Shown here: positions 8,169 to 62,120 of the stretch, piece by piece
How the letters are laid out: every line of letters begins with the position of its first letter
Numbering within the stretch: the first letter of the stretch is position 1
Assembly (NCBI GenBank): GCA_963767115.1
Contig: CAVYCR010000001.1
Location: forward strand, 130,430 to 194,429
From: Candidatus Kaiserbacteria bacterium
Lineage (GTDB): Bacteria; Patescibacteriota; Minisyncoccia; Phycocordibacterales; UBA2100
Reading direction: 5' to 3'
Length of the DNA stretch: 64,000 nt
Notes under the pieces: generated by a model
What the model was told of the DNA's origin: nothing
The model's input: the letters and a program-made list of their open reading frames with translations, nothing else
The model's database searches: none
Program-made: the position numbers and the translations under genes

Positions 8169-8178
8169 AAATCGGCTC

Positions 8179-9441: not shown

Positions 9442-9449
9442 AATTTTAT

Positions 9450-12398: not shown

Positions 12399-13801
12399 AT
12401 TGTAATTTTCTCGGCCTCTTTAGAAACGTCATCTGTGGGTTCTTCAGCATCGCTACCATACAACGAGCTATCGCCCTCGTCCATGACTGCGGTAGATTGC
12501 GTCTGCTCTGGCAATTTTGATGCGGCTTCGCGTACATCAAGTTTGCCAGTGACCACATCAGTAACTACGTGAATACGAAACTCATGCAGAAGTTGTATTT
12601 CATTATCAAATAGCTGTAATTGTCTTTCAATTTCCGATAATTCTTGATCTAGCGTCGCGACGATTTTTTCTTGCTCCGGCAATGACGGTATTGGGACTCT
12701 CACATTTTTGAGCCATGGCATATGTATATCGCGCTGTATATCACCAACACCTTTCGACGCGGTGACAAACTGCGATACCATTATTCTCGACTTAAATAGG
12801 TAGTCGGCAAATCTCGGTAACAGAGATGAATCTAAGCCGAGGACCACATAAGCAGGGCTAATGATGCCTAGATATTCAGATACCCCAACAGAGCCACGCC
12901 ATGCTTGTTGATTATTAAGAACAAGATCACCCGGCTTGACTACCTGATAGCCAGACAAATCAAGACTCGGTTTATGAACCTGTCCTCCCCCCTCTCCGTA
13001 ACGAATCACACCCCTACCCAGGAATACCGAGAGAAGATCTAGATCGGTTCGACCTTTTTCCGTTCTAATCCGGGAAATTTCCCATAACCTTGAAATCTTC
13101 CATTCGGAATTTACTTCTTGTTCAGGCGACGATCCGAGGAGTTTCGTCTTTATCTTTGGATCAAGACCGTGAGTAACTACATGACTAACAACATTTTTCT
13201 TTTGTTCCTCTAACAATTTGATTAACTGTTGCTTCGCGTGTATGTATTGTCGGATGCGCCGATCGGCATAGTTGAGAAAACGAATTATTGCGGATTGCTC
13301 ATCATAGGGAGGGAGCGGAACAGGCTGGTTCCCAAAATCTTCAAACCGAAAGTCTGTAGACCTCTCGCGAATACCTTTAGATAAAGCCAGTATCCATTGT
13401 GTACGCGCCATCTCTCGTATAACGTACGCAAAGTATTCTGAAGTGGCCTCCTCAGTTGGCTGACACACTGCGCAAACAGGACTACATTTTCCATTTGAAT
13501 CAGATACACCCACCGCGCCAGCAAAAGCGTCCATCGCATGGATCACAAGATCTCCCTTTAATACCCGCTGATAGCCGATCTCTTGTAGTGCCTCAGTAAA
13601 ACCACGCAGTCGACGATTGCGCCGCAATGTTACGGTGCCATCACGAAAACATGTCACAATCTCATCCCCTGCCTCTACAGGCCTCGAGACTTTGTTAAAA
13701 AGCCATTTAGCTCGTTTGATGCCCCAGTGTTCTGGTATTTCTCCGAGCCACACCACGGCCGAGTCTTTGTATCTTGAATAGGGCTTGAGATCTTTAATCA
13801 T
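12395..13801 (-). CDS. hsdS: Type I restriction-modification specificity subunit S
   Basis: 468 aa with two target-recognition-domain halves separated by conserved coiled-coil spacers (SLPEQEKIVATLDQEL, PPYDEQSAIIRFLN). It lies between hsdM and hsdR. Confidence 0.85.
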   Translation of the reverse strand: MIKDLKPYSRYKDSAVVWLGEIPEHWGIKRAKWLFNKVSRPVEAGDEIVTCFRDGTVTLRRNRRLRGFTEALQEIGYQRVLKGDLVIHAMDAFAGAVGVSDSNGKCSPVCAVCQPTEEATSEYFAYVIREMARTQWILALSKGIRERSTDFRFEDFGNQPVPLPPYDEQSAIIRFLNYADRRIRQYIHAKQQLIKLLEEQKKNVVSHVVTHGLDPKIKTKLLGSSPEQEVNSEWKISRLWEISRIRTEKGRTDLDLLSVFLGRGVIRYGEGGGQVHKPSLDLSGYQVVKPGDLVLNNQQAWRGSVGVSEYLGIISPAYVVLGLDSSLLPRFADYLFKSRIMVSQFVTASKGVGDIQRDIHMPWLKNVRVPIPSLPEQEKIVATLDQELSEIERQLQLFDNEIQLLHEFRIHVVTDVVTGKLDVREAASKLPEQTQSTAVMDEGDSSLYGSDAEEPTDDVSKEAEKITI

Positions 13802-13807
13802 GAAGTG

Positions 13808-15982
13808 CTATCCTTTCGCGATAATTTCATCGAGCAATCCTTCTGTTTCTTTCTCCAATTTAAGGATGTCCCCCTGAATCTCTGTCAGAGGACGTAACGG
13901 TTCCGGTTTGAAGAAATAACGGTTGAAATTGATCTCATATCCAAGTTTGGTCGCACCTTCTGTGGTCCAGGCATCAGGCGCATATGGAAGTACCTCACGC
14001 TTAATAAAATTTTCGATGCCTCCCTTTTCTAACAAAGGCACTTGTTCGTAGTCACGAAGCTCAACATCCGGCTCGTACTCGACGACACTTTTGTTGCTAT
14101 GTATCTCGATTTCAAAAAAACCGTGTAATGGATCGACCTTTGTGAGGGACTTGTGGACTTGTTTGATCACCGGTTCTGCATCCGGATCACGTTCAGCGAG
14201 CACAGTTTGCAAAAACTTAAGACGCTTTGCAGACATCTTAACCTTATTCTCCTTAGCGATACTATCAACTATTTCTAAAAACTTTTGGTAATCCATATGC
14301 GGACCAGTTCCGATTTCCTTCACAACCTTCTCGATGATGGGGACAAGTTGTTCCTCCCCCGCATCTACGCATGCTACGCGAAAACGCTTGAGATGTCCGT
14401 TGCGGAGATCAACCTTTAGTCGTAATGGCCGTTCAATCATGACTTTCCAATAGCCAAATTCCTCATTCGGAAAGATTTTCGATTGTTTGGTCTCCTTGAA
14501 AGAGAGAAAAGTATCCATCACACTCTTTATATTCTCGTCAGTGAGCTCACAGTTCTTTTTGCCCATATTCTTGCGTAACGGTGTAAACCAGCCATTTGTA
14601 TCAATGAGCTGTACTTTGCCCTGGCGTTTGCTTTCTTTACGATTTGAAAGCACCCAAATATAGGTTGCGATACCAGTGTTATAGAACATGTTAAGCGGAA
14701 GTGCCACAATCGCTTCAAGCCAGTCGTTCTCAAGGATCCAGCGACGTATATTACTTTCACCTTGCCCCGCATCACCAGTGAATAGTGAGGAGCCGTTGTG
14801 AACTTCTACAATGCGACTTCCGAGTTTAGTGTCATGCTTCATCTTTGAGAGCATGTTGGCAAGAAAGAGCATCTGCCCATCGCTTGAGCGCGTGACTAAG
14901 GAATACTCCGGATCACCTGCGTGTTCGATGATAAAACGAGGGTCCTTAATGTTCGTTTTCCCACCCATTTTCTCCATATCGCTCTTCCAGCTTTTCCCGT
15001 AAGGGGGGTTCGACAACATGTAGTCAAAACGCATATTAGAGAACGCATCGTTCGTGAGAGTCGAGTATTTGGGACCACCAATGATGTTGTCCGCCTCGTC
15101 GCCGTCACCTTTTAGAAGAAGATCTGCTTTACAGATCGCGTATGTCTCAGCATTGATCTCTTGCCCGTAGAGATGCGTGACTACTTCTTTCTTTCGCTTT
15201 ATTGCGATCTGCTCTAGTGTTTCTTCAGCGACAGTAAGCATGCCGCCGGTCCCTATGGCACCGTCATAGAGAAGATAAGTTCCTGACTCAATTTTATCGG
15301 CGATGGGTCTGAACACCAGCTCAGCCATAAGCTTGACCGCATCACGTGGCGTCCAATGCTCTCCCGCCTCCTCATTGTTTTCTTCGTTGAATATACGCAC
15401 CAATTCCTCGAAGATCGTCCCCATACCGTGGTTGTCGAGGCGCTTGTGCTTGCGTGTACCATCGGGATTAATGACAGCGCGCGGACTGAGATTGATAGAT
15501 GGGTCTAAAAACTTTTCTATGAGCGTACTGAGGACATCAGCATCAGACAAAGTGGATATTTGATTTCGGAATTTAAAGTTGTTTAAAATCTCTTGCACGT
15601 TCGGAGAAAAACCGTCGAGGTACGCCTCAAAATCTTGGCGTAATGCTTGTTGCGTAGTACTTGCGCGTAGATTCTTAAGCGTAAACGGAGAATGATTATA
15701 AAACGCTTGGCCCGCCGCAGATCGCAAAGCATTTTCCTGATTTACTATTCGTGCTTTATCGAGACGCTTTTTTGCATCTATTACGGACTGTTTTGTATCC
15801 TCAAGAACTGCATCAAGGCGACGGATGATGATCATAGGTAAAATTACGTCGCGGTACTTACCGCGCACATAAAGGTCTCGGAGAACATCGTTTGCAATGC
15901 CCCAAATGAAATTTGCTACCCAATGCAGGTCACCGTTTGTCAGAGCTTCATCCTGTTGCGGATTTTCCTTTAAAGAAGACAT
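13808..15982 (-). CDS. hsdM: Type I restriction-modification N6-adenine DNA methyltransferase subunit M
   Basis: HsdM N-terminal domain (FIWGIANDVLRDLYVRGKYRDVILPMIIIRRLD), an AdoMet motif (LYDGAIGTGGML) and the catalytic LSNPPYGKSW (NPPY) motif. Confidence 0.9.
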   Translation of the reverse strand: MSSLKENPQQDEALTNGDLHWVANFIWGIANDVLRDLYVRGKYRDVILPMIIIRRLDAVLEDTKQSVIDAKKRLDKARIVNQENALRSAAGQAFYNHSPFTLKNLRASTTQQALRQDFEAYLDGFSPNVQEILNNFKFRNQISTLSDADVLSTLIEKFLDPSINLSPRAVINPDGTRKHKRLDNHGMGTIFEELVRIFNEENNEEAGEHWTPRDAVKLMAELVFRPIADKIESGTYLLYDGAIGTGGMLTVAEETLEQIAIKRKKEVVTHLYGQEINAETYAICKADLLLKGDGDEADNIIGGPKYSTLTNDAFSNMRFDYMLSNPPYGKSWKSDMEKMGGKTNIKDPRFIIEHAGDPEYSLVTRSSDGQMLFLANMLSKMKHDTKLGSRIVEVHNGSSLFTGDAGQGESNIRRWILENDWLEAIVALPLNMFYNTGIATYIWVLSNRKESKRQGKVQLIDTNGWFTPLRKNMGKKNCELTDENIKSVMDTFLSFKETKQSKIFPNEEFGYWKVMIERPLRLKVDLRNGHLKRFRVACVDAGEEQLVPIIEKVVKEIGTGPHMDYQKFLEIVDSIAKENKVKMSAKRLKFLQTVLAERDPDAEPVIKQVHKSLTKVDPLHGFFEIEIHSNKSVVEYEPDVELRDYEQVPLLEKGGIENFIKREVLPYAPDAWTTEGATKLGYEINFNRYFFKPEPLRPLTEIQGDILKLEKETEGLLDEIIAKG

Positions 15983-15983
15983 A

Positions 15984-16208
15984 TTACTTTACTAGCTCAT
16001 CCAAACTCACGTTGAAAACGTCCGCTATTCTCTTAAGCGTACTGATTCGAGGGTCTTTTGTTGCGCCGCTCTCAATCTTCGCAATTGTGTGATAAGCGAG
16101 TTTTGTTTCTTGAGAGAGAGATCCTTGATTCCACTTATCTCCCTTAAGTCTTTTGAAATTCTTTTTGAGATTCTTAACCACTTTGGTGGCTTCTTTATCT
16201 TTTTTCAT
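15984..16208 (-). CDS. XRE-family helix-turn-helix regulator (possible controller protein of the R-M operon)
   Basis: 74 aa. SLSQETKLAYHTIAKIESGATKDPRISTLKRIADVFNVSLDELV is a Cro/C1-type HTH. It lies immediately upstream of hsdM with a 1-nt gap. Confidence 0.8.
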   Translation of the reverse strand: MKKDKEATKVVKNLKKNFKRLKGDKWNQGSLSQETKLAYHTIAKIESGATKDPRISTLKRIADVFNVSLDELVK

Positions 16209-18179: not shown

Positions 18180-18281
18180 TCGTGAGCCGACTGGTTTTTG
18201 GGGTCGATGCCTCGCGGCGGCGCGAAATAGAGTTCTTTTTCAGCAGAAAAAGAACGACCCCAAAAGCCAGTCGGCTCACGA
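18180..18281. repeat. Long foldback element A (26-27 bp arms, 48-nt interior with nested hairpin)
   Basis: Arms 18181-18206 cgtgagccgactggtttttggggtcg and 18255-18280 cgaccccaaaagccagtcggctcacg are complementary except for one T/G position. The interior contains gttcttttt-cagcag-aaaaagaac. Confidence 0.8.
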
Positions 18282-18309: not shown

Positions 18310-19245
18310 ATGGCAGCCAGTCTCAAGGATCTCAAGACGCAATTCCTCGAGTATCTCGAGATCGAAAAGGGCCGCGGTGTGAAGACTGTCGAGAATTATG
18401 ATCGTTATCTCACGCGATTCCTCACCTTCTCCAAAGCACAAAAACCCGGCGATATTACCGAGACGATGGTGCGCGAGTTTCGTATTAATCTCAATCGTGC
18501 CGTCGGCACAGCGGGGACCATGAAGAAAAATACGCAGAATTATCATCTGATAGCGCTGCGCGCGTTTCTCAAGTTCTTGCGCAAGCGCGATGTCGAGAGC
18601 CTCAACCCTGAGCGCATTGAGCTTGCCAAGGTCGGCGGCCGCGACCTCGACCTTATTACTGCCGCCGAGCTCGAGCGGCTCATGCGAGGCCCGACTGGAG
18701 AGACACTGAATGCCTTGCGTGATCGCGCGATGCTCGAGCTTCTCTTCTCGACGGGTCTACGTGTCTCCGAACTCTGCAATCTCAATCAGGACCTTGATCT
18801 CTCTCGCGATGAATTCTCGGTGCGTGGCAAAGGCGAGAAGGTGCGTGTCGTCTTTCTTTCTCCTGAGGCCAAGAAAGCGGTCGCCGAATACCTCAAGAAA
18901 CGCGGCGACATGGGCGAAGCGCTCTTTGTAAGTTATAGCCCCGCCTCCGCCAAGGCTTCGGCGGGCAAGAAAGGCACGGGAATGGATCTGCCGAGACTCA
19001 CTCCGCGTTCTGTCGAGCGCATCGTGAAGCAGTATGCGATCAAAGCTGGTATCACGCGCAAGGTGACGCCGCACGTCATCCGCCATAGCTTCGCAACCGA
19101 CCTCCTGCAAAACGGCGCTGACTTGCGCAGTGTGCAAGCGCTCCTCGGCCACGCCAATATCGCAACGACGCAGGTCTATACGCATGTTACAGATAGTCAT
19201 CTACGCGACGTACACAAAGCCTTTCATGGCAAACGTCGACGTTGA
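18310..19245 (+). CDS. Tyrosine site-specific recombinase, XerC/XerD family
   Basis: N-terminal SAM-like domain (FLEYLEIEKGRGVKTVENYDRYL) and catalytic C-terminus HVIRHSFATDLLQNGADLRSVQALLGHANIATTQVYTHV (R..HxxR..Y). Confidence 0.85.
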   Translation: MAASLKDLKTQFLEYLEIEKGRGVKTVENYDRYLTRFLTFSKAQKPGDITETMVREFRINLNRAVGTAGTMKKNTQNYHLIALRAFLKFLRKRDVESLNPERIELAKVGGRDLDLITAAELERLMRGPTGETLNALRDRAMLELLFSTGLRVSELCNLNQDLDLSRDEFSVRGKGEKVRVVFLSPEAKKAVAEYLKKRGDMGEALFVSYSPASAKASAGKKGTGMDLPRLTPRSVERIVKQYAIKAGITRKVTPHVIRHSFATDLLQNGADLRSVQALLGHANIATTQVYTHVTDSHLRDVHKAFHGKRRR

Positions 19246-19259
19246 GGTGCTCGCGTGTC

Positions 19260-19430
19260 GGCCGGAACCTCTGGCATCTCTCTTTGCGAACATGCCGCGA
19301 TAGCTTGCGGCACGACCCCTAAAACAAAAAGCGCCTTGCTAGGCGGTTTTTGTTTTCCACTACTCTATGACGTGGGAATGTGACATCTGCTGCGCGAGGT
19401 TCGCAAAGAGAGATGCCAGAGGTTCCGGCC
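19260..19430. repeat. Foldback element B (conserved-core family; 32-bp perfect arms; embedded bidirectional terminator)
   Basis: Arms 19260-19291 and 19399-19430 are perfect reverse complements. The inner 9 nt of each arm (tttgcgaac / gttcgcaaa) and the 107-nt interior are shared, in inverted orientation, with the elements at 27770-27934 and 51626-51794. The interior hairpin aaaacaaaaagcgcc-ttgcta-ggcggtttttgtttt (19321-19357) is terminator-like on both strands. Confidence 0.85.
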
Positions 19431-20590: not shown

Positions 20591-20610
20591 GCAGAGGTCA
20601 GACCTCTGCA
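20591..20610 (+). terminator. Hairpin gcagaggt-caga-cctctgc followed by T-run; repeated at 50465-50483
   Basis: It lies 8 nt after the xth stop, followed by atttta. The 19-nt sequence cagaggtcagacctctgca recurs identically at 50465-50483. Confidence 0.5.
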
Positions 20611-20939
20611 TTTTATAAAGGACAAGTTATCCACACCTATGTCCTTTACAATGTCCTTTAACACGATATTCTTACCACCAGTCGTTCTTCATCATTCTTT
20701 CGCTGTTCAACAACAACGAAATACATAAAGGTACAAAATACCTCAATACAAACAAAAATGTTACGGCCGCCTCTGCAGCCGATTGGATTCGAACGTATTT
20801 TGTCGATATTGTAATTTCGCGCTCTTTCTTGAAGGGCAAAGGATGAAACACTAAGGCGTCTTGTAATGGCAACTTCTCAAATAGAGAAACGAGGAGCTGC
20901 CATACGCAAGACGCCTTTTTATATTTGGTACATAACAGA

Positions 20940-21059
20940 GGGCCGCCTGGCCTGACAGTTACTTTTTCATTCGAGGACCGAACCCGCAGACCGCGAAGCG
21001 GGCGTGAGGGCGCTATGCGTCCCGCAGAATGAAAAAGTAACTGTCAGGCCAGGCGGCCC
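20940..21059. repeat. Long foldback element C (33-bp perfect arms, 54-nt GC-rich interior)
   Basis: 20940-20972 gggccgcctggcctgacagttactttttcattc is the exact reverse complement of 21027-21059. It lies 28 nt downstream of the cca stop (minus strand). Confidence 0.8.
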
Positions 21060-22567: not shown

Positions 22568-22617
22568 TGTATGCCATTCATTGTGCTGGAGCTAATGCGC
22601 TGTATGATGGACACGAC

Positions 22618-22692
22618 GCTCTCGTAGTGAAACGGATATCACGGCAGTCTTCGGAACTGTTATTCCAGGTTCGAATCCTGGCGGGAGCACCA
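22618..22692 (+). tRNA. tRNA-Arg (anticodon TCG), CCA encoded
   Basis: Manual cloverleaf: acceptor GCTCTCG/CGGGAGC (one G-U), D arm GTGA..TCAC, anticodon arm GCAGT-CTTCGGA-ACTGT, T arm CCAGG-TTCGAAT-CCTGG, then A-CCA. Confidence 0.85.
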
Positions 22693-22697
22693 GGCTG

Positions 22698-22723
22698 AAA
22701 AAGGCAATCTGCATTGCCTTTTT
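22698..22723 (+). terminator. Intrinsic terminator after tRNA-Arg
   Basis: aaaaaggcaat-ctgc-attgccttttt: a 6-bp GC core extended by A/T pairs, followed by a T5 run. Confidence 0.75.
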
Positions 22724-22849
22724 CTGCACTGGTGCTAGTCGGAGCCATGTTCAGCCAGTAGGCTGAACGGCGAGACGGGGTCGCGGAATTTTGCTTGTGG
22801 CGACAGGCAAAATATCCGTGACCACAAGACTTAAAATAAAGACTAGGAA

Positions 22850-22877
22850 TTGCCCCCATCCCCCATTCCTGTATAAT
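22850..22877 (+). promoter_or_regulatory. Candidate sigma70-type promoter for tRNA-Gly(GCC)
   Basis: TTGCCC (22850-22855), a 16-nt spacer, then TATAAT (22872-22877), about 70 nt upstream of the tRNA. Confidence 0.45.
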
Positions 22878-22946
22878 CTAGCGCACTTACCCACCGTCGC
22901 GGTTTCAGCGGGCCTTGCCCGCCGAAGCCCGCTATGGCGGGCGAAG

Positions 22947-23017
22947 GCGGGCATGGTTTAGTGGTAGAACGGCGCCTTGCCAAGGCGCAGACGGGAGTTC
23001 GATTCTCCCTGCCCGCA
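22947..23017 (+). tRNA. tRNA-Gly (anticodon GCC)
   Basis: GCGGGCA...TGCCCGCA acceptor, anticodon arm GCGCC-TTGCCAA-GGCGC, T arm GGGAG-TTCGATT-CTCCC. No encoded CCA. Confidence 0.9.
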
Positions 23018-23296
23018 CAGAAATACAATAGTTCTCGGACATGTACGAGAAAACACGGCGAGAAGTAGTTTCATATAAACCTCATATAAAGGTTTTTTAG
23101 GTAAAACTGGGGAAAACTCTGTGGATATGTGGATTACGGACCATTGATACAGTCCCTTTAGTGTCTTTAATGTCGCTATAAACAGGCTGTTAGACTCTAG
23201 AATCGTGAAATATGTTTCATAAGAAACGTATTTCACGTGAAAAGTATTGTAGGTATATTTGAAAAGTGAGTTAGAATATACCTATGAAATCGGGGT

Positions 23297-23692
23297 ATGG
23301 TTATAAATGATAAGGGTCGCAAAGAGACCGGCCGGATAGGGGAATCCATCGCTGCTCAATTCCTTGAGCGGAAGGGTTTTACAATTCTAGACCGGAATTA
23401 CAGAAAACCGTGGGGCGAGATCGATATAATTGCTGAAAAGGGAGGCGTTGTACGTTTTGTAGAGGTCAAAACCATTTCACGTGAAAACATGGAAGACATT
23501 TCACGTGAAATCTCTGAGTACAGACCCGAAGAGCAGGTACATGCTTTTAAGCTTAAGAAAGTCGCTCGTACAGCAGAAACCTACATGATTGCTCACAAAG
23601 ACAATAGGGAATTCCAGATAGATGTGGTTGGGGTTTTACTCAACAAAAAGACTCGACGCGCACGGTGTCGGCTCTTTGAGCAGGTATTATAG
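23297..23692 (+). CDS. YraN-family (UPF0102) predicted endonuclease
   Basis: GRIGESIAAQFLERKGFTILDRNYRKPWGEIDIIAEKGGVVRFVEVKT matches the conserved YraN core (GE.A..YL...G..I...N.R...GEIDLI......VFVEVK). Confidence 0.8.
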   Translation: MVINDKGRKETGRIGESIAAQFLERKGFTILDRNYRKPWGEIDIIAEKGGVVRFVEVKTISRENMEDISREISEYRPEEQVHAFKLKKVARTAETYMIAHKDNREFQIDVVGVLLNKKTRRARCRLFEQVL

Positions 23693-23786
23693 GGATTGTC
23701 CTATATTGAATATAATGGACATGTGCGTCCTTTAGAGAGTGTTTGACGTCTACCATCCGCCTTCACTTAAGCTTCAGCGGATACTA

Positions 23787-23857
23787 TCGGGCTGCTGGGA
23801 ATCGAACCCAGTCTACATGGTCCCAAACCATGCGTACTACCGGTATACGACAGCCCG
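23787..23857 (-). tRNA. tRNA-Pro (anticodon TGG)
   Basis: Reverse strand: acceptor CGGGCTG/CAGCCCG, anticodon arm CATGG-TTTGGGA-CCATG, T arm CTGGG-TTCGATT-CCCAG, discriminator A. No encoded CCA. Confidence 0.85.
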
Positions 23858-24037
23858 GTTAAGAGATCCTACCACAGAAGTTGAAGTAGGGGAGCCAAAT
23901 GCCAAAGTTTCGTAAGCGAGAAAATCTGATAAGATTGGGCAAACTCGCCGTCGCGAACTACAGCGGGCCTTGCCCGCAGGAGCTCGCTTTGGCGAGCGAG
24001 GGCCCTCCTCCTTCGCCAAGGCTTCGGAGGGGGCAAT

Positions 24038-24108
24038 GCGGGATTAGTTTAGTGGTAAAACGACAGTTTTCCAAACTGTAGTTGGGAGTTCGATTCTCCC
24101 ATCCCGCA
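24038..24108 (+). tRNA. tRNA-Gly (anticodon TCC)
   Basis: GCGGGAT...ATCCCGCA acceptor, anticodon arm ACAGT-TTTCCAA-ACTGT, T arm GGGAG-TTCGATT-CTCCC. No encoded CCA. Confidence 0.9.
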
Positions 24109-24151
24109 CTACTTCGCGACAGAAATGTCGCTTCGAAGTGCACCGCACAAG

Positions 24152-25896: not shown

Positions 25897-26068
25897 TGGC
25901 AATTCGCCACGTCGCAGGGGTTTTGCAAACTGTTCGTACTTGCCCAAGTGACGTACCTAAAAAATTATCAAGGTGAAGCCTTGATAATTTTTTCTACTGC
26001 CAATTTCATAGCCGTCTCTTTTTCGCTGCGCGAGGTTCGCAAAACCCCTGCGACGTGGCGAATTGCCA
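25897..26068. repeat. Foldback element D (variant of the conserved-core family; 34-bp arms, 1 mismatch)
   Basis: Arms 25897-25930 and 26035-26068 are complementary except for one A/C position. It shares the termini ttttgcaaac ... gctgcgcgag-gttcgcaaaa with element B but has a different interior hairpin, aaaaaattatcaagg-tgaag-ccttgataatttttt. Its right arm abuts the rny stop codon at 26069. Confidence 0.8.
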
Positions 26069-27602
26069 CTATCTCGCGTATTCGATCACGCGTGTCTCGC
26101 GGATAACGCTCACTTTGATTTCGCCCGGATATTGCATCTCTTCTTGAATCTTGTCGGCGATGTCACGTGCGATCTTGCGCGCGTCGAGGTCGGTGACGTT
26201 TTCGGGCTTCACAATGACGCGGATCTCGCGACCGGCCGCTATCGCGTAACTCTTGTCGACGCCGGGAACGTTGTTGGCGATCGCTTCGAGTTCTTCGAGG
26301 CGCTTGATGTAGTTCTCGACGCTGTCGCGGCGCGCGCCGGGGCGGCCGCCGGAGATCGCATCGGCGACCTGCACGATCATGCTTTCGGGCGTCTCGTACG
26401 GATATTCCTCATGGTGTGCTTGCATAGCTTTTACGACTCGCTCGTCGACGCCGAACTTCTGCAAGTATACGACGCCCGATCTCGACGTGAGTGCCCGGCA
26501 CTTCGTGGTCGACTGCCTTGCCGATATCGTGAAAGAGCGCGCCGGCGCGTGCGATAGCAGGATCGGCACCAAGCTCCTCGGCAAGCATGCCTGCGAGGTG
26601 TGCGACTTCGACTGAGTGGTCGAGGACGTTTTGGCCGTAGCTCGTACGGAAGTAGAGGCGGCCGAGGATCATGATGAGCTTCGGGTCGAGGTCGGGGACG
26701 CGTGCGGCGTACGCTGCCTCCGCGCCTTTCTTCTTGATGATGGTGTTGATCTCAGCTTCGGCTTTCTGCACGGCCTCTTCAATCTTCGCGGGTTGGATAC
26801 GACCGTCGAGAATGAGATTCTCAAGCGCGATGCGCGCGACCTGGCGGCGTATCGGATCGTATGAGGAGAGGGTAATGGTGCCCGGCGTATCATCGACGAT
26901 GACGTCGACGCCGGTGGAGCGCTCGAATTGGCGGATATTGCGGCCTTCCTTGCCGATGATCTTGCCCTTGATCTCGTCGTTGGGAAGCGTGACGGTCGTT
27001 GCAAGTACATCTGAGACGACGGAATTGCCGAGGCGATGCACGGCGGTCGTGAGGATTTCCTTGGCGCGCTGCTCAAGGCGCTGGTCGCCCGAGATCTCAA
27101 GCTTGCGCATGCGGCTCTCGATGTCGCTCTCGTAGCGGCGTTCGACTGCTTTGATCAGCTCTGACTTCGCGTCATCAGCCGAGAGATTGGCGATGCGCTC
27201 GAGTTGTTCTTGCTGGCCGCGCGCGGCTTCCTCGAGAGCCTGGCGTGCCGCTGAGAGATCCTCGTTCTTGCGGGCGAGGTTTTCCTGTTCGGCATCGAGG
27301 TTGGTCTGGCGATTATCGAGCAATTCTTCCTTGCGGACGAGGCGTTCCTCGACGCTCTTGAGCCCGCGCTCGCGCTCTTTGAATTCGTCGCCGATCTCAC
27401 GGGCTTTTTCTTCGGCACGGGCCTGTGAATCTTCGGTGATCTGCTTTGCCTTTTCTTCGGCGTCAAGCATCATCTTGCGGACTTGCAGCTCCATCGAGCC
27501 GCGTTTGCCGAGACTAATAATATATCGGAGAAAGTAGCCTATTCCGACGCCCGCCAAACCCACAAGGGCGAGAAGAGCGAGCAAAAGTTTGACTGAAATC
27601 AT
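26069..27602 (-). CDS. rny: Ribonuclease Y; reading frame broken once (+1) as sequenced
   Basis: N-terminal TM segment, coiled coil, KH domain (IKGKIIGKEGRNIRQFE) and HD domain (ALFHDIGKAVDHEV) are in ORF 26409..27602. The remainder (QKFGVDERVVKAMQAHHEEYPYETPESMIVQVADAISGGRPGAR...) is in ORF 26069..26584. The junction is near 26458-26466. The span is 1534 nt, i.e. 3n+1. Confidence 0.85.
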
Positions 27603-27769: not shown

Positions 27770-27934
27770 GCCGCCGCTCTGGTTAGGTGTTTGCGAACCT
27801 CGCGCAGCAGATGTCACATCCCCACGTCATATAGTAGTGGAAAACAAAAACCGCCCAGCAGGGCGCTTTCTGTTTTGAGGGTCGGTATCTAAGCTATTGC
27901 GGTATGTTCGCAAACACCTAACCAGAGCGGCGGC
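27770..27934. repeat. Foldback element E (conserved-core family; 29-bp perfect arms)
   Basis: Arms 27770-27798 and 27906-27934 are perfect complements. The 107-nt interior is near-identical to those of elements G and B (B inverted). It ends 5 nt from the clpP stop (minus strand). Confidence 0.85.
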
Positions 27935-40638: not shown

Positions 40639-42372
40639 ATGAAAAAACAGCTTTCAACTGTCCCACGCGGCCTCACGCTCATCGATACGATGGTCGGCAT
40701 CGCGCTTATGGTGCTGGTCTTCGTCGGGATCTACGGCACCTTCCAGCTGACTGTCGATGTAGTGACCAACGAAAAGGCACAAGCCGGTGCGCTCGGGCTT
40801 GCCGATGAGCGGATGGAATACCTGCGCTCGCTCGGCTACAGCGCTGTCGGCACGGTAGGCGGTGTGCCCTCGGGGAATCTCCCGCAGACGGAGAGTCTCT
40901 CGCTCAACGGGATTAGTTACACGCGACGTACCTATATCGAATACGACGATGATCCGGCAGATGGTCTGGGTAGTAGCGATACCAACGGCATCATCGAAGA
41001 TTACAAATCCGCCAAGGTAGAAGTGCTCTGGAGCTTGAAGGGGATCACGCACAGCGTCGTGCTTGTCGCACGCTTCTCTCCGACGACTGGTATGGAATCA
41101 GCGGTGCCCGGCGGCACGCTCATAATCAATGCAGTCAATTCTGTCGGAGCGCCGATCTCCGGCGCGTCTGTAGCAATCGTGGCAACCTCTGCCTCGCCCA
41201 CGGTCAACATAAATACCTTCACCAATGCGAGCGGCACCGCGACCGTACTCGGCGCGCCCGCGTACTCGGGCTATCAGGTCACGGTGACTGCTTCCGGCTA
41301 TTCGACCGCAAGCACCTACAGCGTGACGAGCCAAAACACCAACCCCAATCCCGGCAATCTTTCGGTCACCAAGAACCATACGACATCCGCAACTTTCGCG
41401 ATCGATCTCCTCGGCACCAAGACCGTTAACACTTGGACACAGGTACTCAGTGGCACATCGACCGACCCCTTCAACAACACAAGCGAGATAGCAACATCAA
41501 CCGGCATTTCTGTGACTGGTGGCGCGGCACAACTTGCCGTAGGCTCGACTACTGGCGAAGTACAATCGGTCGCGTTTAGTCCTTCATATCTTGCCGATTG
41601 GGGGACCTTCACCTGGAGCGATACTCAGCCTGCGAGCACCTCGATCCGCTATCGACTCTACAGCGGCGACGGCACGACCCTCGTTCCTGATTCATATGTG
41701 CCAGGAAATGCCGCGGGTTTTGTGAGCGGCAGCGTGAGTCTTTCCGGTGTTCCAACCAGCACCTATCCTTCACTGCGCCTTGATGCGGTCTTCTCTTCGG
41801 CAAGTACTACGACGACACCATCGCTCACGCTCTGGAGTATCACCGACTCGTACGGCCCTGTGCCGCTTCCCAACATCGCCTTCAATCTCCAAGGCGGCAA
41901 GACAATCGGCAGCGGCCCCGGCGGTACGCTTTACAAATACAGTCAGAACTTCAGCACCGCGGGCAACGGGAGCATCACCATCCCAGGTCTTGAGTGGGAC
42001 AATTACACGGTCACGATCAGCGGCTCAAGCGGCTACGATGTGGCTTCAGCTTGCAACCCGCAGCCCGAGAGTCTTTCGCCGGGATCTACCATGACCAGCA
42101 ACTTCTATCTCGCGGCGCATACGGGGAACTCGCTTCTAGTAGACGTGCGCGGTGCGACAAGTGGCGCCCTGATCCCGAACGCCTCGGTACAGCTCTCGAT
42201 CGCGGGCTACAATAAGACGATACCGACTGATAACTGCGGACAGGCGTTCTTCTCGGGTGTCTCCGCATCAAGTAATTATTCGATCAGTGTGTCTGCGCCA
42301 GGATATTCGACATACAATGGAAGTGCGGTGAGCGTGAACGGCACTTCGAGACTCTCAGTGTCGTTGAATTAA
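40639..42372 (+). CDS. Large pseudopilin-like protein (prepilin-type N-terminus, Ig/CarboxypepD_reg-like repeats)
   Basis: MKKQLSTVPRG|LTLIDTMVGIALMVLVFVGIYG is a pilin-like leader and helix. The remainder is rich in T/S/G beta-type repeats (GAPISGASVAIVATS..., GALIPNASVQLSIAG...). Confidence 0.7.
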   Translation: MKKQLSTVPRGLTLIDTMVGIALMVLVFVGIYGTFQLTVDVVTNEKAQAGALGLADERMEYLRSLGYSAVGTVGGVPSGNLPQTESLSLNGISYTRRTYIEYDDDPADGLGSSDTNGIIEDYKSAKVEVLWSLKGITHSVVLVARFSPTTGMESAVPGGTLIINAVNSVGAPISGASVAIVATSASPTVNINTFTNASGTATVLGAPAYSGYQVTVTASGYSTASTYSVTSQNTNPNPGNLSVTKNHTTSATFAIDLLGTKTVNTWTQVLSGTSTDPFNNTSEIATSTGISVTGGAAQLAVGSTTGEVQSVAFSPSYLADWGTFTWSDTQPASTSIRYRLYSGDGTTLVPDSYVPGNAAGFVSGSVSLSGVPTSTYPSLRLDAVFSSASTTTTPSLTLWSITDSYGPVPLPNIAFNLQGGKTIGSGPGGTLYKYSQNFSTAGNGSITIPGLEWDNYTVTISGSSGYDVASACNPQPESLSPGSTMTSNFYLAAHTGNSLLVDVRGATSGALIPNASVQLSIAGYNKTIPTDNCGQAFFSGVSASSNYSISVSAPGYSTYNGSAVSVNGTSRLSVSLN

Positions 42373-42373
42373 T

Positions 42374-42459
42374 ATGAGAAAACAGCTTTTAGCTTCTAGC
42401 TCACAGCTTCTAGGAAAAATACGTCGGCGTTCTTTGTATTTTCTAGAAGCTAGAAGCTC
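42374..42459 (+). repeat. 86-nt 5' module, copy 1 (hairpin built from GCTTCTAG / CTAGAAGC units)
   Basis: It differs from 43066-43151 at one position by manual alignment. It contains 2x gcttctag, aaaatac-loop-gtatttt, then 2x ctagaagc, giving a ~23-bp imperfect hairpin at 42391-42458. Confidence 0.85.
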
Positions 42460-43069
42460 TTCACTAGAAGCTCGTTCTCGGGGCATGACCCTCATCGAAA
42501 CGGTAGTGTGGATCGCGGTGCTTTCCTTCGCCATGCTCGCGCTCACTACCTCGCTTCTGTATTTCTACCGGACCGATCGGTACGAAATACAGGAAGAGTA
42601 CGCCGTCTCGACGGCACAGCATGCGATGGATGCGATGGTCCGCGCGCTGCGCACGGCCGCGTTTTCCAACAACGGCGCGTATCCCATCCTGTCGATCGCG
42701 CCCGACCAGATCTCTTTTTATGCGAGTGTGTTGCCCAACGATCCTCTGATACAACAGGTGCGCTTCTTCGTCTCCGGCAACTCTATCGAAGAAGGTATCA
42801 TCGAGCCGCAAGGAGACCCGCTCACCTACGCCTCGTCGTCGGAGAGCATTACTGACCTCGGCAATTACGTCCTCAATGCGACACTCGCGACATCGACGTT
42901 CTACTATTACGATCAAAACGGCAATCAAATAACCGACGATTCGCAGTCTGACCAAGTACGCTTCGTAGTGGTGAACCTCGTTGTCGATGTCTCTACCTCG
43001 TCCTTGCCGTCGCAGCTCACGCTCGTTTCTTCCGCGGCGCTGCGCAACTTGCTCAATCTCAATATATGA
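42374..43069 (+). CDS. Pseudopilin-like protein with unusually long 37-aa leader
   Basis: ...EARSRG|MTLIETVVWIAVLSFAMLAL has G at -1 and E at +5. The ATG lies 1 nt after the previous stop. The first 86 nt are duplicated at 43066. Confidence 0.7.
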   Translation: MRKQLLASSSQLLGKIRRRSLYFLEARSSSLEARSRGMTLIETVVWIAVLSFAMLALTTSLLYFYRTDRYEIQEEYAVSTAQHAMDAMVRALRTAAFSNNGAYPILSIAPDQISFYASVLPNDPLIQQVRFFVSGNSIEEGIIEPQGDPLTYASSSESITDLGNYVLNATLATSTFYYYDQNGNQITDDSQSDQVRFVVVNLVVDVSTSSLPSQLTLVSSAALRNLLNLNI

Positions 43070-43151
43070 GAAAACAGCTTTTAGCTTCTAGCTCGCAGCT
43101 TCTAGGAAAAATACGTCGGCGTTCTTTGTATTTTCTAGAAGCTAGAAACTA
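43066..43151 (+). repeat. 86-nt 5' module, copy 2
   Basis: See 42374-42459. The ATG overlaps the previous stop (ATGA). Confidence 0.85.
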
Positions 43152-50326: not shown

Positions 50327-50438
50327 CTGCCCCGTCCCAACCCCATTATGCCGGCTACGCAGGCCCGGCGGGGCCGAGTCCGAGCGCTGGGCGAGCACGC
50401 CCAGATAGCGACGGCATAATGGGGTCGGGACGGGGCAG
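50327..50438. repeat. Long foldback element F (27-bp arms with one A/C position, 58-nt GC-rich interior)
   Basis: 50327-50353 ctgccccgtcccaaccccattatgccg pairs with 50412-50438 cggcataatggggtcgggacggggcag. It starts 7 nt after the recJ stop. Confidence 0.8.
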
Positions 50439-50464: not shown

Positions 50465-50483
50465 CAGAGGTCAGACCTCTGCA
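50465..50483. repeat. Second copy of the cagaggtcagacctctgca hairpin
   Basis: Identical 19-mer to 20592-20610. The self-complementary stem is cagaggt/acctctg. Confidence 0.7.
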
Positions 50484-50570: not shown

Positions 50571-51200
50571 ATGAATACATTTTCAACGGGTTCGTCATTG
50601 CGTTTCGGCTGGGAGACCTTCAAGAAGCGTCCATGGTTTTTCATCGGCGTCACGTTTCTCGTGATGCTTATTTCAGTGATCGTGAAACCGGCTGCCGGAC
50701 AGCAGGGGAGCGCGGCATGGGACGTGTGGCATGTCGTTTCTTTCGTTCTGCTCATCCTCCTCGACATGGGCTCGACGGCACTCATGCTGCACGCGCACGA
50801 CGATGCGGCTTCGGCCAAAGTCTCCGATCTCTGGCATCCGCATCCGTTTCTCAACTATCTCGGCGCCGTCATACTGAGCGCGATAGCGATCGTTGCCGGA
50901 CTCTTTCTCTTCGTCGTTCCCGGCATCTTTTTTATTCTCATGTGGATGTTCGTAAAATATTCCGTGATCGATAAAAACCTCGGCCCGATCGAGGCGATGC
51001 AATACAGCGCTCGTATCGGCGGGGGCAAGCGCTGGGAACTCCTGCTCTTTCTTTTCGCGGTCATTCTTCTCAATGTCTGCGGCGCGATACTGCTCCTTGT
51101 TGGCCTGCTCGTGACCATTCCTGTCACAGCGCTCGCGATGACGCACGCGTATCGTACTCTCTCAGGTGGCACGAGTATCCCCGCCGCGACAACCGCATAG
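50571..51200 (+). CDS. Hypothetical integral membrane protein
   Basis: 209 aa with ~5 TM helices. The N-terminus FGWETFKKRPWFFIGVTFLV resembles DUF975-type membrane proteins (recall only). Confidence 0.5.
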   Translation: MNTFSTGSSLRFGWETFKKRPWFFIGVTFLVMLISVIVKPAAGQQGSAAWDVWHVVSFVLLILLDMGSTALMLHAHDDAASAKVSDLWHPHPFLNYLGAVILSAIAIVAGLFLFVVPGIFFILMWMFVKYSVIDKNLGPIEAMQYSARIGGGKRWELLLFLFAVILLNVCGAILLLVGLLVTIPVTALAMTHAYRTLSGGTSIPAATTA

Positions 51201-51203
51201 CGC

Positions 51204-51617
51204 ATGTCTGAAGTTGTCATCTATACCGACGGCGGTGCCCGTGGCAACCCTGGGCCCGCCGGGGCTGGTGCCGTGATCATCAAGGGTGATGTTGTTGTTG
51301 CAGAAATAAAAAAATTCTTAGGAGCGATGCAGACCAACAATTGGGCAGAATACGAAGCCGTCTTTCTTGCGCTCACACATGCCAAAGAACTCGGCCTCAA
51401 TGTTGACTCGACAGAAGTGCGGCTTGATTCGAAACTTGTTGCCGAACAATTAATGGGCAATTGGAAAGTGAAAGAGCCGACTCTCAAACCGCAATGGATG
51501 AAAGTCCGTTCATTGATGGCAGATTTCAAAGCAGTACGTTGCGTCTATGTGCCCCGCGCCCAAAACGCGCATGCCGACCGCTTGGTCAACGAGGCACTCG
51601 ACGAAGCGGGACATTAG
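51204..51617 (+). CDS. Ribonuclease H (RNase HI family)
   Basis: VIYTDGGARGNPGPAGAG...TNNWAEYEAVFLAL...NAHADRLVNEAL provides the DEDD catalytic residues of type 1 RNase H. Confidence 0.8.
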   Translation: MSEVVIYTDGGARGNPGPAGAGAVIIKGDVVVAEIKKFLGAMQTNNWAEYEAVFLALTHAKELGLNVDSTEVRLDSKLVAEQLMGNWKVKEPTLKPQWMKVRSLMADFKAVRCVYVPRAQNAHADRLVNEALDEAGH

Positions 51618-51625
51618 AATGTCGA

Positions 51626-51794
51626 CAGAAACGTAAGCAGTGCGGTGTTTGCGAACCTCGCGCAGTAGATGTCACATCCCCACGTCATACAGTAGTGGAA
51701 AACAAAAACCGCCCAGCAGGGCGCTTTTTGTTTTGAGGGTTTTCACATGACTCATCGCGGTATGTTCGCAAACACCGCACTGCTTACGTTTCTG
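51626..51794. repeat. Foldback element G (conserved-core family; 31-bp perfect arms)
   Basis: Arms 51626-51656 and 51764-51794 are perfect complements. The interior is near-identical to element E. It starts 9 nt after the RNase H stop. Confidence 0.85.
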
Positions 51795-51818
51795 CCGCAT
51801 ATGTTAGAGTAATCACAT

Positions 51819-53309
51819 ATGGGGTCGGGGGTCCTCAAGGCAATTACACTTGGATTTTTGTGCGGCGTCTTTATCCGATCATTTTGCTTGGTTGGATTTT
51901 CTTTTACGCTCTACATGGTCATGCTCGCGCTCGTGGTGCTCGGTTGCGCGCGCTTCGACCCCGCGCGTGCGCGGTCGCTCATCGTGGTAGCGCTCGCGCT
52001 TGCCTCATGCGTGGGCGGGATCATGCGAATGAACGCGGCCGTACTCACCGGCGATCCGCATCTCACTGCAACAATCGGCACGGAGGTGACGCTCATCGGC
52101 GCCGTATCTGCGGAGCCCGATGTGCGCGAGAGTGAGGTGCGCGTCGATCTTGACGCAACGCAGATCGTCGAAGGTTCGACGACGATTCCGATTGATGCCG
52201 GCGTGCTCGCAGAGCTTCCACCTCATGCAGATCTACACTACGGCGATCTCGTGCGAGTCCGTGGCGCACTCGGTCTGCCGCAGTCATTTAGTGTTGGGGG
52301 TGGTGAGCCGTTTGATTATCCCGACTATCTCGCGGTGAGTGGCATTGGTTATGAGCTCTCATTCGCGCAGGGTTCGAGTACCGGTGAGCGCTACGGCAAT
52401 CCGCTTCTTGCCGAAGCGATCGCGATCAAAGAGAAATATGTGGACGCGCTCGAGGCTGTCTTACCCGAGCCGGAAGCCGGACTCGCTGCGGGCATCACGG
52501 TCGGTGACAAGCGCTCGATCGGGCCCGAGCTTTCAAGTGATTTCCAAAAAGTAGGCTTGCTGCAGATAGTCGTGCTTTCTGGATACAATATCACGGTCGT
52601 TGTCGATTTCATCTCATATATCTTCGCTTGGGCGCCACAAAGATTACGCTTCTGCGTAGGTATCATGATCGCTGGCTTCTTCGTTGCGATCTCCGGCGGC
52701 GGCTCGAGCGCACTGCGTGCCGCGATCATGGCGGTGATCGCAATGTATGCTCGTATGAGCGGGCGTTCGTTTGACGCACTGCGTGCGCTTCTGAGCGCCG
52801 CCTTCTTGATGGTACTGGTCGACCCGTTTATCCTCGCATACGATCCCGGCTTCCAGCTCTCTTCGATTGCAATGCTGGGGCTTACGACACTCGCGCCGCT
52901 CTTAGACCCTTACATGCAATGGATTCCCTCACGGCTCGGCCTGCGCGAGATTATCGTATCGACTCTAGCGACGCAGATTGCTGTCACACCACTCATTTTG
53001 CATCAAGACGGCGCACTCTCGATACTTTCGCTTCCTGCCAATATACTCGCAATGCTCCCGGTCCCGCTCGCGATGCTCGCGTCTTTTATCGCGGCCGTCG
53101 CCGCGATGATATACGGAAGAATTGCTACGCCTCCTGCTCTTCCCGCATATGTGCTCCTTCATTACATCGTAATCACGGGCCACTTTTTCGCGTCGCTTCC
53201 GTTTGCATCGGTTCCGCTCGGCACGATAGGGGCAGTACCGATGGCCTTCATGTATTCATTTATCGCAGGCGGTACATGGCTTATCAACAAACAAAAAAGC
53301 CGCGTTTGA
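51819..53309 (+). CDS. comEC: ComEC/Rec2-family DNA internalisation channel protein (no fused MBL domain)
   Basis: N-terminal DUF4131-like OB region plus a polytopic Competence domain (GLAAGITVGDKRSI...LQIVVLSGYNITVV...SGGGSSALRAAIMA). 496 aa. Confidence 0.8.
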   Translation: MGSGVLKAITLGFLCGVFIRSFCLVGFSFTLYMVMLALVVLGCARFDPARARSLIVVALALASCVGGIMRMNAAVLTGDPHLTATIGTEVTLIGAVSAEPDVRESEVRVDLDATQIVEGSTTIPIDAGVLAELPPHADLHYGDLVRVRGALGLPQSFSVGGGEPFDYPDYLAVSGIGYELSFAQGSSTGERYGNPLLAEAIAIKEKYVDALEAVLPEPEAGLAAGITVGDKRSIGPELSSDFQKVGLLQIVVLSGYNITVVVDFISYIFAWAPQRLRFCVGIMIAGFFVAISGGGSSALRAAIMAVIAMYARMSGRSFDALRALLSAAFLMVLVDPFILAYDPGFQLSSIAMLGLTTLAPLLDPYMQWIPSRLGLREIIVSTLATQIAVTPLILHQDGALSILSLPANILAMLPVPLAMLASFIAAVAAMIYGRIATPPALPAYVLLHYIVITGHFFASLPFASVPLGTIGAVPMAFMYSFIAGGTWLINKQKSRV

Positions 53310-53321
53310 AGCGGCTTTTTT
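53293..53321. terminator. Bidirectional intrinsic terminator
   Basis: aaaaaagccgc-gtttgaa-gcggctttttt, overlapping the comEC stop. Confidence 0.75.
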
Positions 53322-53346
53322 GTTTGCGAGAAAGAAATTGCGAAGA

Positions 53347-58029: not shown

Positions 58030-58386
58030 ATGCAAAGCAAGAAGGATTCGGTTACCAACGAGAAAATATTCGGTCTCCTCTTGGATATGGATGAACGTAT
58101 CACGTCAATGGACGAGCGCATTGCCTCAATGGACGAGCGCATTACATCTATGGACGAGCGCATTATATCTATAGATGGACACGTTAATTCCATTGATGAG
58201 CGGATGGCAACCAAGGCCGATCTTCGCGAGTACGCCACCAAGAATGATCTTGAACGATTCAGGGATGAGATCCTTAAGGAAGTACGACCGCTCCATAGGG
58301 CGGTCGATACGGATGCCGAGACCATTATCGACCATGGCAGGCGCATTACCGCTCTCGAAAAACACGCAGGCATCGCGCCCCGATAA
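58030..58386 (+). CDS. Hypothetical coiled-coil protein with 7-aa tandem repeats
   Basis: MDERI[TA]S occurs four times, followed by two degenerate units (21-bp tandem repeats at 58087-58212). The start is taken at the ATG at 58030. Confidence 0.5.
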   Translation: MQSKKDSVTNEKIFGLLLDMDERITSMDERIASMDERITSMDERIISIDGHVNSIDERMATKADLREYATKNDLERFRDEILKEVRPLHRAVDTDAETIIDHGRRITALEKHAGIAPR

Positions 58387-60731: not shown

Positions 60732-61148
60732 ATGGCTACCATCAACCAGCTCACGCGCAAAGGACGCACTAACCCTGTGCGCAAGACGAAGACCCTCGCA
60801 CTCGCGCGTGGCTTCAATTCATTGAAAAATCGCCCGAGCTTCTATCCTTCGCCTTTCAAGCGCGGCGTCTGCACGCGCGTGACCACCAAGACTCCCCGCA
60901 AGCCAAACTCCGCTATCCGAAAGATCGCCCGCGTACGCCTGACCAACGGCATGGAAATCACCGCCTACATCCCGGGAGAGGGACACAACCTCCAGGAGCA
61001 CTCGGTCGTCTTGGTGCGCGGTGGCCGCGTGAAGGACATCGGTATCCGTTACACGATCGTGCGCGGCAAGCTTGATGCGACCGGTGTCGACAAGCGCCGC
61101 CGCGGCCGTTCACGCTATGGCGCGAAGCGCCCGAAGGCAGCCAAATAA
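60732..61148 (+). CDS. rpsL: 30S ribosomal protein S12
   Basis: [12 protein letters not shown]...[31 protein letters not shown]...[21 protein letters not shown]. The ORF-track start at 60660 is an upstream extension. Confidence 0.95.
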
Positions 61149-61180
61149 TCTCAAAGTTCAAATCTAAAATCTCAAATCTT
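61147..61180 (+). repeat. AATCTCAAAG-TTCAAATCT-AAAATCT repeat, copy 1 (rpsL-rpsG spacer)
   Basis: The 25-26 nt atctcaaagttcaaatctaaaatct recurs inverted at 62091-62116 and, with two changes, at 61654-61681. Confidence 0.8.
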
Positions 61181-61653: not shown

Positions 61654-61681
61654 AAATCTCAAAGATCAAATCTCAAATCTA
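61654..61681 (+). repeat. AAATCTCAAAG repeat, copy 2
   Basis: aaatctcaaagatcaaatctcaaatcta. It also forms the 5' arm of the rpsG terminator hairpin. Confidence 0.75.
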
Positions 61682-62090: not shown

Positions 62091-62120
62091 TAGATTTTAG
62101 ATTTGAACTTTGAGATCTGC
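62091..62120 (-). repeat. AATCTCAAAG repeat, copy 3 (inverted)
   Basis: The reverse complement reads gcagatctcaaagttcaaatctaaaatcta. Confidence 0.8.

Follow-up and report, generated by a model that had tools for sequence, protein, structure and literature searches.

The genomes of bacteria of the candidate phyla radiation are tiny, and both the mobile DNA of these bacteria and the control of their transcription are little known. The closest described counterparts of the element reported here are palindromic intergenic repeats that affect transcripts, such as ERIC/IRU of enterobacteria and YPAL of Yersinia. In these repeats and in the Correia elements, the terminal inverted repeats are conserved and insertion leaves short direct target duplications (TA for Correia). 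The Correia repeat-enclosed elements of Neisseria are reported to be bound by RNase III and to alter the expression of adjacent genes (PMC2649163).

The subject of this work, foldback G, is a 169-nt element between the genes for RNase H and comEC in a 64-kb stretch of DNA (the window) from a Kaiserbacteria genome of the candidate phyla radiation. Its family resembles the Correia, ERIC and YPAL repeats in being ~100-170 nt long, non-coding, multi-copy and intergenic, in having inverted ends round a conserved core, and in giving a transcript that folds to a long hairpin. There is no sequence similarity between the G family and these repeats and, unlike them, it has no direct duplication, and conservation within its arms is confined to the innermost 9 nt. 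Compared with MITEs, the family has dispersed, non-coding copies below ~500 bp that are present or absent at orthologous sites, but it lacks a direct target-site duplication. Its 9-nt motifs are conserved and lie internally, with 20-24 bp of copy-specific paired sequence outside them.

On balance, and with some reserve, we read G as a lineage-specific, non-autonomous, non-coding foldback repeat of MITE-like character that delivers a bidirectional terminator upstream of a -10-like motif of comEC. Counting against this reading, only five members are known, and no others were found in three public collections. The copy-specific perfect arms, and not the terminator, are the one really unusual and potentially novel feature of G, and they clash with standard cut-and-paste insertion, in which the ends are conserved and direct duplications are left behind.

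Anatomy and predicted fold of G

G consists of two perfectly paired 31-bp arms round an interior of 107 nt (Table 1). Pairing can be prolonged to 51623/51797 at the cost of one mismatch. All arm pairs of G and of the related copies E and F are Watson-Crick, with no G-U. The preliminary description of this DNA had given G perfect and unique 31-bp arms and an internal terminator, and our analysis agrees: the complementarity is complete, the outer arm CAGAAACGTAAGCAGTGCGGTG has no match elsewhere in the window even with up to 4 mismatches, and the inner hairpin scores as a terminator on both strands. The distances that it gave to the neighbouring genes are also correct, with 8 nt between the end of the RNase H stop codon at 51617 and G, and 24 nt between G and the comEC start at 51819.

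Table 1. Coordinates of foldback G, its parts, the other family copies in the window and the flanking genes
Feature	Position	Strand	Basis or relation
RNase HI gene	51204-51617	+	Pfam RNase_H 1.6e-13, RVT_3 2.8e-18; stop TAG 51615-51617
Left arm of G	51626-51656		31/31 complementary to right arm 51764-51794
Outer left arm, copy-specific, CAGAAACGTAAGCAGTGCGGTG	51626-51647	+	perfect pairing with 51773-51794
Left terminal motif TTTGCGAAC, running on as CCTCGCGCAG	51648-51656	+	invariant in G, F, E, D and L002
Conserved left interior, CTCGCGCAGTAGATGTCACATCCCCACGTCATACAGTAGTGG, holding a TAnAGT hexamer	51657-51698	+	92-97% identity among three type-1 copies
Terminator-like hairpin: A-tract, CGCCC-AGCA-GGGCG stem-loop, T-tract	51699-51734	both	terminator scan
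Right interior, ending in CGCGGTAT	51735-51763	+	alignments of copies
Right terminal motif GTTCGCAAA, family-wide	51764-51772	+	alignments of copies
Outer right arm	51773-51794	+	exact reverse complement of 51626-51647
Extended -10-like motif TGTTAGAGT	51802-51810	+	8 nt upstream of comEC ATG
comEC, short form	51819-53309	+	Pfam Competence 7.5e-42, DUF4131 5.8e-21
Copy F, type 1	27770-27934	+ (direct with G)	97% identity to G over 97 nt
Copy E, type 1	19260-19430	- (inverted relative to G)	alignment
Element D, type 2	25897-26068	-	end motifs as type 1; interior and stem differ

As RNA, G is predicted to fold with -97.9 kcal/mol (+ strand) or -105.2 kcal/mol (- strand); shuffled versions reach -49 to -53 kcal/mol (z about -12.6 to -12.9; none of 200 shuffles was as stable). 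The DNA fold gives z -11.7. Within the core, the predicted pairing is nested and becomes progressively less perfect, the right interior (variable among copies at about 51741-51754) being partly paired with the left interior.

A fold of this stability on both strands, together with covariation in the apical hairpin, would fit a role of G at the RNA level, as the gene of a structured non-coding RNA or as an element for RNA processing or stability, with its stem under selection and mobility not its main property. The Correia elements would offer a parallel, being reported to bind RNase III and to be cleaved or protected by it (PMC2649163). We nevertheless regard such a function as highly unlikely: G has no Rfam match (best score 18.6 bits, E=0.15, against a gathering score of 50), arms made up of Watson-Crick pairs throughout fit a DNA-templated origin better than selection at the RNA level, and an efficient internal terminator would end transcription before the second arm. 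In addition, the orientation to neighbouring genes is not fixed, and there are relatives without the element. Across the window, the Rfam scan matched only four tRNAs. A small - strand open reading frame leaving the core (MTWGCDI[Y/C]CARFAN...) was also rejected, having no ribosome-binding site and being absent from type 2.

A family of five members with two core types

The type-1 core occurs three times in the window against none expected from shuffles. This bears out the preliminary description of G as a third full copy, the other cores lying at 19260-19430 and 27770-27934. The description also placed G in the same orientation as a copy E, which is right if the copy at 27770-27934 was meant and wrong for the one at 19260-19430. 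The type-1 copies G, F and E have in common only TTTGCGAAC, the interior and GTTCGCAAA, and the outer 20-24 bp of the arms of each window copy are copy-specific, perfectly paired and sharply bounded.

Element D represents the second core type, with the end motifs TTTTGCGAACCTCGCGCAGC ... GTTTGCAAA. Both types carry TTTGCGAAC(C[T/G]CGCGCAG)...GTT[C/T]GCAAA, and in the left interior they have only CTCGCGCAGC and CAGTAG in common. A profile search with nhmmer, using the region between the terminal motifs, recovered the four window copies and one member on contig L002, and these five (G, F, E, D and the L002 element) make up the known family. The copies, four in 64 kb plus one in L002, are dispersed and non-coding, and they come from at least two genomes from different samples and include at least two core types.

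No match to the exact type-1 core pattern came up in genome, metagenome and viral collections, and a motif-plus-gap pattern gave none in metagenomes or viral contigs. Two motif-plus-gap matches in Thermoguttaceae (L004, L005) lie inside coding sequence and were set aside as chance. BLAST against phages and plasmids found no match, and literature searches found no such elements described in Patescibacteria.

The window also holds four further foldbacks with unique arms and no core, at 6550-6615, 18180-18281 (foldback B), 20940-21059 (foldback C) and 50327-50438. They have perfect or near-perfect arms of 23-33 bp round unrelated interiors of 20-58 nt, and several of these interiors form small hairpins with an AGCA loop. 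Foldback C is absent in L008 and L009, and the one at 50327-50438 is absent in L003. The nhmmer core profile gave no link to B, C or 50327-50438. The four may stem from the same arm-generating process as the core family. A gene for a Xer-like tyrosine recombinase has B upstream, in the divergent promoter region, and E downstream; it is syntenic in L008 and L009, both free of foldbacks.

A separate palindrome, CAGAGGTCAGACCTCTG, short and perfect, is present at 20592-20608 and again at 50465-50481, against 0.2 occurrences expected in the window by chance. Both copies lie just 3' of gene ends, and a variant, CAAAGGTCTGACCTCTG, follows ClpP in L011 (~1214-1230). It looks like a small palindromic repeat of the REP type.

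Support from an independent assembly

The arm lengths of 27-34 nt are near k = 29-33, and contigs of a second assembly stop at the arms, as might be seen if perfect arms were an assembly artefact of an arm length close to common k-mer sizes. The second assembly consists of Logan contigs, which are independent, unitig-based (k=31) and made by an assembler different from that of the window. In run ERR11630394, contig L001 contains RNase H and 30 nt of the left arm of G, and contig L012 contains 30 nt of the right arm and comEC. The break 30 nt into a 31-nt inverted repeat is what a k=31 graph predicts, and so it argues against the artefact. A third contig, L010, confirms copy F in the same orientation as in the window. 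Flank-arm and arm-motif junctions are both present in L001, L012 and L010, and since the flank-arm junctions recur in the contigs of another assembler, the arms of G are real. Moreover, the whole L002 element lies within a single contig from another organism and sample, and the gene order across G is the same as in relatives. An artefact is scarcely credible on these grounds.

Insertion of the family just past stop codons

The order RecJ - UPF0259 - RNase H - comEC is kept in relatives, and the RNase HI gene is syntenic with RNase H in L002, L003 and L013-L016. Among 741 homologues of ComEC, the few with a named source are Paceibacterota, Kaiserbacteria or Patescibacteria; source-named homologues of RNase Y and ClpP likewise belong to Candidatus Kaiserbacteria, Paceibacterota or Patescibacteria. 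The gap between RNase H and comEC is 27 nt in L003 (ComEC 61% identical to that of the window) and 20 nt in L013-L016 (57%), and it is empty in both cases. In L002, the closest relative by ComEC (68%), the gap holds the type-2 member of the family. Because a gap of 20-27 nt is ancestral in the relatives, this comparison shows that G was inserted as a whole, all 169 nt of it with the arms. Relatives probably transcribe RNase H and comEC as a single unit, which G would split.

The L002 element begins 9 nt past the RNase H stop and has the opposite orientation to G. Similarity between its arms and those of G is not significant (p about 0.1), and the flank adjoining the element is conserved between the window and L002 (p=0.0012). 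The window copies likewise follow genes closely: G begins 8 nt past the RNase H stop codon, F 5 nt past that of ClpP (a - strand gene), E 14 nt past that of the Xer-like tyrosine recombinase, and D abuts the stop codon of RNase Y (0 nt). All five members thus begin 0-14 nt past a stop codon, in varying orientation to the upstream gene.

Relatives without the elements were found for the other window sites as well (RNase Y 91% identical to the window in L007 and 83% in L008 and L009; ClpP 98% in L011). The F site is empty in L011, L008 and L009, the D site is empty in L007, L008 and L009, and the E site has no foldback in L008 and L009. Across L007, L008, L009 and L011, neither a foldback nor the motif TTTGCGAAC occurs at sites F, D, E and C. 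Orthologous positions are therefore polymorphic for the presence of an element in the case of G, F and D. The intergenic DNA near the elements aligns with element-free relatives, at ~75-80% identity to L007 as estimated from the alignments.

None of G, F, E, D and the L002 element has a direct target-site duplication outside its arms or motifs; the sequence outside the terminal motifs is an inverted, not a direct, repeat. Neither transposase domains nor an autonomous partner carrying the motifs were found in the 64-kb window, where the motifs are confined to the foldbacks.

The position of the family recalls integron attC sites. These too are imperfect palindromes immediately following a stop codon; their left side reads ...AAC and their right side GTT..., and their structure is constant while the sequence varies. 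In attC the core sites RYYYAAC / GTTRRRY are outer and the centre is variable, whereas the G family has the reverse arrangement. We rejected G as an attC site: TGCGAAC/GTTCGCA is off consensus, neither intI nor a cassette array is present, and the genes on either side are housekeeping genes in conserved synteny.

The RNase Y gene (26069-27602, - strand) is split in the window into two open reading frames, 26409-27602 (N-terminal part, KH and part of HD) and 26069-26584 (the rest of HD), which overlap in different frames. In relatives it encodes a single protein of 509-510 aa. Possible explanations of the split are a frameshift, loss of function as a pseudogene, and a sequencing error.

A putative bidirectional terminator ahead of comEC

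The inner hairpin of G, AAAACAAAAACCGCCC-AGCA-GGGCGCTTTTTGTTTT, was positive in the terminator scan on both strands (51710-51723 plus tail) and folds with -17.9 and -20.5 kcal/mol. It has the GC stem, tetraloop and, on each strand, T-tract of an intrinsic terminator. Native bidirectional terminators after comEC (53288-53326) and in L007 (2162-2197) have the same design of A-tract, GC stem and T-tract. Unlike a plain intrinsic terminator, that of G sits in a repeated 169-nt foldback with a 31-bp outer stem and is delivered by insertion.

At the homologous position, family members carry three unrelated perfect apical stems: CGCCC/GGGCG in type 1, TTATCAAGG/CCTTGATAA in D and TACCGAG/CTCGGTA in L002. 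The stem of copy E has one compensatory change, from C-G to T-A. The hairpin and its A/T flanks are thus retained across the family although the sequence of the stem changes, and this retention with differing stems is the best evidence that the terminator may be the selected payload.

The extended -10-like motif between G and comEC has counterparts in the same place in relatives (TGCTACAGT in L002 and L003, TACAAT in L013), so that a -10-like motif before comEC is conserved in four genomes. From this conservation we infer that TGTTAGAGT is an extended -10 promoter of comEC's own, from which the comEC mRNA would probably be leaderless or nearly so. A sigma-70 scan of 51000-52400 found no full -35/-10 site, in a phylum whose promoters are poorly defined.

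Insulation of RNase H from comEC by G, as stated in the preliminary description, is plausible, judged from sequence comparison, for four reasons: (i) the hairpin matches the native bidirectional terminators of the genome, (ii) three stem sequences are kept as hairpins in the family, (iii) the 20-27 nt gap of relatives has no terminator, and (iv) comEC retains its own conserved -10-like motif right of G. In this mechanism, RNA polymerase that has passed through RNase H, or that approaches from the other side, would halt at the T-tract past the inner hairpin. The RNase H transcript would end at ~51734-51740, ahead of the right arm, and not run into comEC, which would be transcribed from its own -10-like motif, 7 nt right of G. 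Any read-through RNA would fold into a perfect 31-bp duplex and become a substrate for double-strand-specific RNases. The G family would thus be a ready-made two-way terminator delivered beside housekeeping genes.

The terminator also bears on whether G could be a switch. Invertible promoters of Bacteroides fragilis carry a short common motif inside otherwise differing inverted repeats. If G were an invertible DNA switch (inverton), flipping of its asymmetric interior would alter the expression of a neighbouring gene, the 31-bp arms would be the inverted repeats, and TTTGCGAAC/GTTCGCAAA would be a shared recombinase recognition motif. Inverted repeats of ~30 bp flanking a short intergenic segment, here ~107 nt, fit published invertons, as does a common short motif in differing repeats that lie in either orientation (PMC11892184; bioRxiv 10.1101/2023.03.11.532203). 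Copies do occur in both orientations to genes, the L002 element being flipped relative to G. The interior lacks symmetry, its conserved left part of 42 nt containing a TA[C/T/G]AGT hexamer, and the tyrosine recombinase gene (18310-19245) is flanked by foldbacks B and E.

We consider a switch improbable all the same. The terminator, unlike the payload of invertons, is symmetric, so flipping leaves termination unchanged; the TAnAGT hexamer is aimed straight into it. The promoter scan found no outward-facing promoter, and no promoter inside G or orientation-dependent change of promoter or coding sequence was found, with the reserve that little is established about promoters in this phylum. A dedicated invertase was likewise not found, and the foldback-free L008 and L009 have Xer-like genes in synteny with the recombinase. 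The second assembly has F in one orientation only, and inversion leaves insertions with copy-specific repeats unexplained.

Origin of the copy-specific arms

Arms of different copies, or of G and L002, have no significant similarity (p at least 0.08). Since the arms are unrelated between copies while the neighbouring DNA is still alignable, they must have differed since each copy arose. Comparison of the arms with the empty sites of L003, L007, L008 and L011, by local and global alignment with shuffles, gave mostly p 0.1-0.99; the lone p=0.009, in an arm test at the F site, came from a mis-trimmed right flank and is not reliable. These comparisons lend no direct support to fold-back copying of a flank, the origin discussed next. 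Similarities picked out by eye between arms and empty sites (AAGACG, CTCTGG, GCCGC) were lost in shuffle-controlled tests. Arms resembling CRISPR spacers, as matches to mobile DNA, were also considered, and exact scans of viral contigs with the arms of G and E found none.

Template switching at quasi-palindromes in E. coli lengthens a short inverted repeat and makes it perfect, the flank of one arm being copied. An analogous process, acting during insertion or shortly afterwards, would have made the outer arms of the G family: fold-back (template-switch) synthesis would be primed by the paired terminal motifs, and ~20-24 nt of one flank would be copied in inverted form. Like quasi-palindrome template switching, this would yield perfect, copy-specific arms without direct repeats, and it would explain why the arms are sharply bounded and unique to each copy. 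The nested, progressively less perfect pairing of the core fits such copying. Template switching is known as a sporadic mutation, whereas in the G family it would concern every copy, within a narrow arm length of 27-34 bp.

The origin of the arms by fold-back copying of a flank is the most speculative part of our account; we place it ahead of hairpin targeting and an invertible segment, but give it little confidence in absolute terms. The wider proposal, that integration regularly yields an inverted rather than direct target duplication of ~20-24 bp through fold-back synthesis, we hold to be unlikely. Inverted target duplication as an outcome of integration is, to our knowledge, undescribed for bacterial mobile elements. 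If the arms are made during insertion, this would point to an undescribed integration route in which every insertion would build its own perfect 30-bp hairpin round a portable terminator, and inverted target duplication might explain the other unique-armed foldbacks of the genome. A version of fold-back priming is described at double-strand breaks in eukaryotes (PMC10622511).

The lengths of the sites do not give a uniform answer. At the D and F sites, the non-element DNA of the window is 26-34 nt shorter than the gaps of relatives, as would be the case if old sequence made up one arm. At site G, however, the 15 nt of non-element DNA already match the empty gap (12 nt in L003). This length bookkeeping among the G, D and F sites is inconsistent and counts against our reading.

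The alternative is that the arms were there before the core. Some insertion sequences target the loops of REP/BIME hairpins. By analogy, the core would have inserted in the apex or loop of a pre-existing hairpin after the stop codon, for instance a terminator or foldback; the mobile unit would be only TTTGCGAAC...GTTCGCAAA and the arms would be the old stem. The L002 element has an 11-bp outer stem (GCCGAAGACGG/CCGTCTTCGGC) and 7-8 unpaired nt on each side beside the motifs, the trace expected of an element that entered the loop of a hairpin. The arms of G, F, E and D, however, are paired all the way to the motifs and retain no part of a loop, and their targets would have to be perfect loopless palindromes of 40-48 bp cut exactly at the centre; no such palindrome exists at the empty sites of L003, L007, L008, L009, L011 and L013. 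The empty D site in L007 has a GC-rich quasi-palindrome right after the stop codon, as hairpin targeting would predict, but the similarity of the D arms to it is not significant.

Hairpin targeting also gains from the coreless foldbacks with unique arms in the window (18180-18281, 20940-21059, 50327-50438 and 6550-6615) as possible targets, and from the fact that the same 12-nt gap was struck by two family members in two lineages. It merely shifts the question to the origin of unique perfect hairpins. Weighing these points, we find pre-existing arms a doubtful proposition; if true, they would make the family a hairpin-targeting element.

Other features of the window

Several other regions of the window deserve mention. 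An intergenic region of ~300 nt (20612-20920), between the genes for an ExoIII-like protein and the CCA-adding enzyme, is strongly conserved in L008 (16552-16848) and L009 (8647-8943) and contains a perfect DnaA-box-like TTATCCACA. It had no credible Rfam match; it may represent an RNA gene that escaped annotation, or a region with a regulatory or origin-related role. Four tRNA genes are clustered at 22600-24110, with GC-rich repeats upstream of two of them (22906-22948 and 23961-24003, 86% identical).

A perfect 25-nt inverted repeat with AAATCT-type motifs (61148-61172 / 62092-62116) encloses rpsG and a gene for a four-helix-bundle protein of the 23S-rRNA-intervening-sequence type. Direct repeats related to it (61153-61179 / 61654-61680) flank rpsG. 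An 87-nt direct repeat, 98% identical between 42372-42458 and 43064-43150, lies at both ends of the open reading frame 42374-43069 (231 aa, no Pfam match), with separate AGCTTCTAG-type inverted repeats inside each copy. Tandem 21-nt repeats, ATGGACGAGCGCATTxxxTCA, at 58087-58212 fall within coding sequence, where they would specify a reiterated heptapeptide. Finally, a low-GC island at 8000-16000 (~45% against 52-58% elsewhere) carries hsdR, hsdS and hsdM of a type I restriction-modification system and was probably acquired horizontally.
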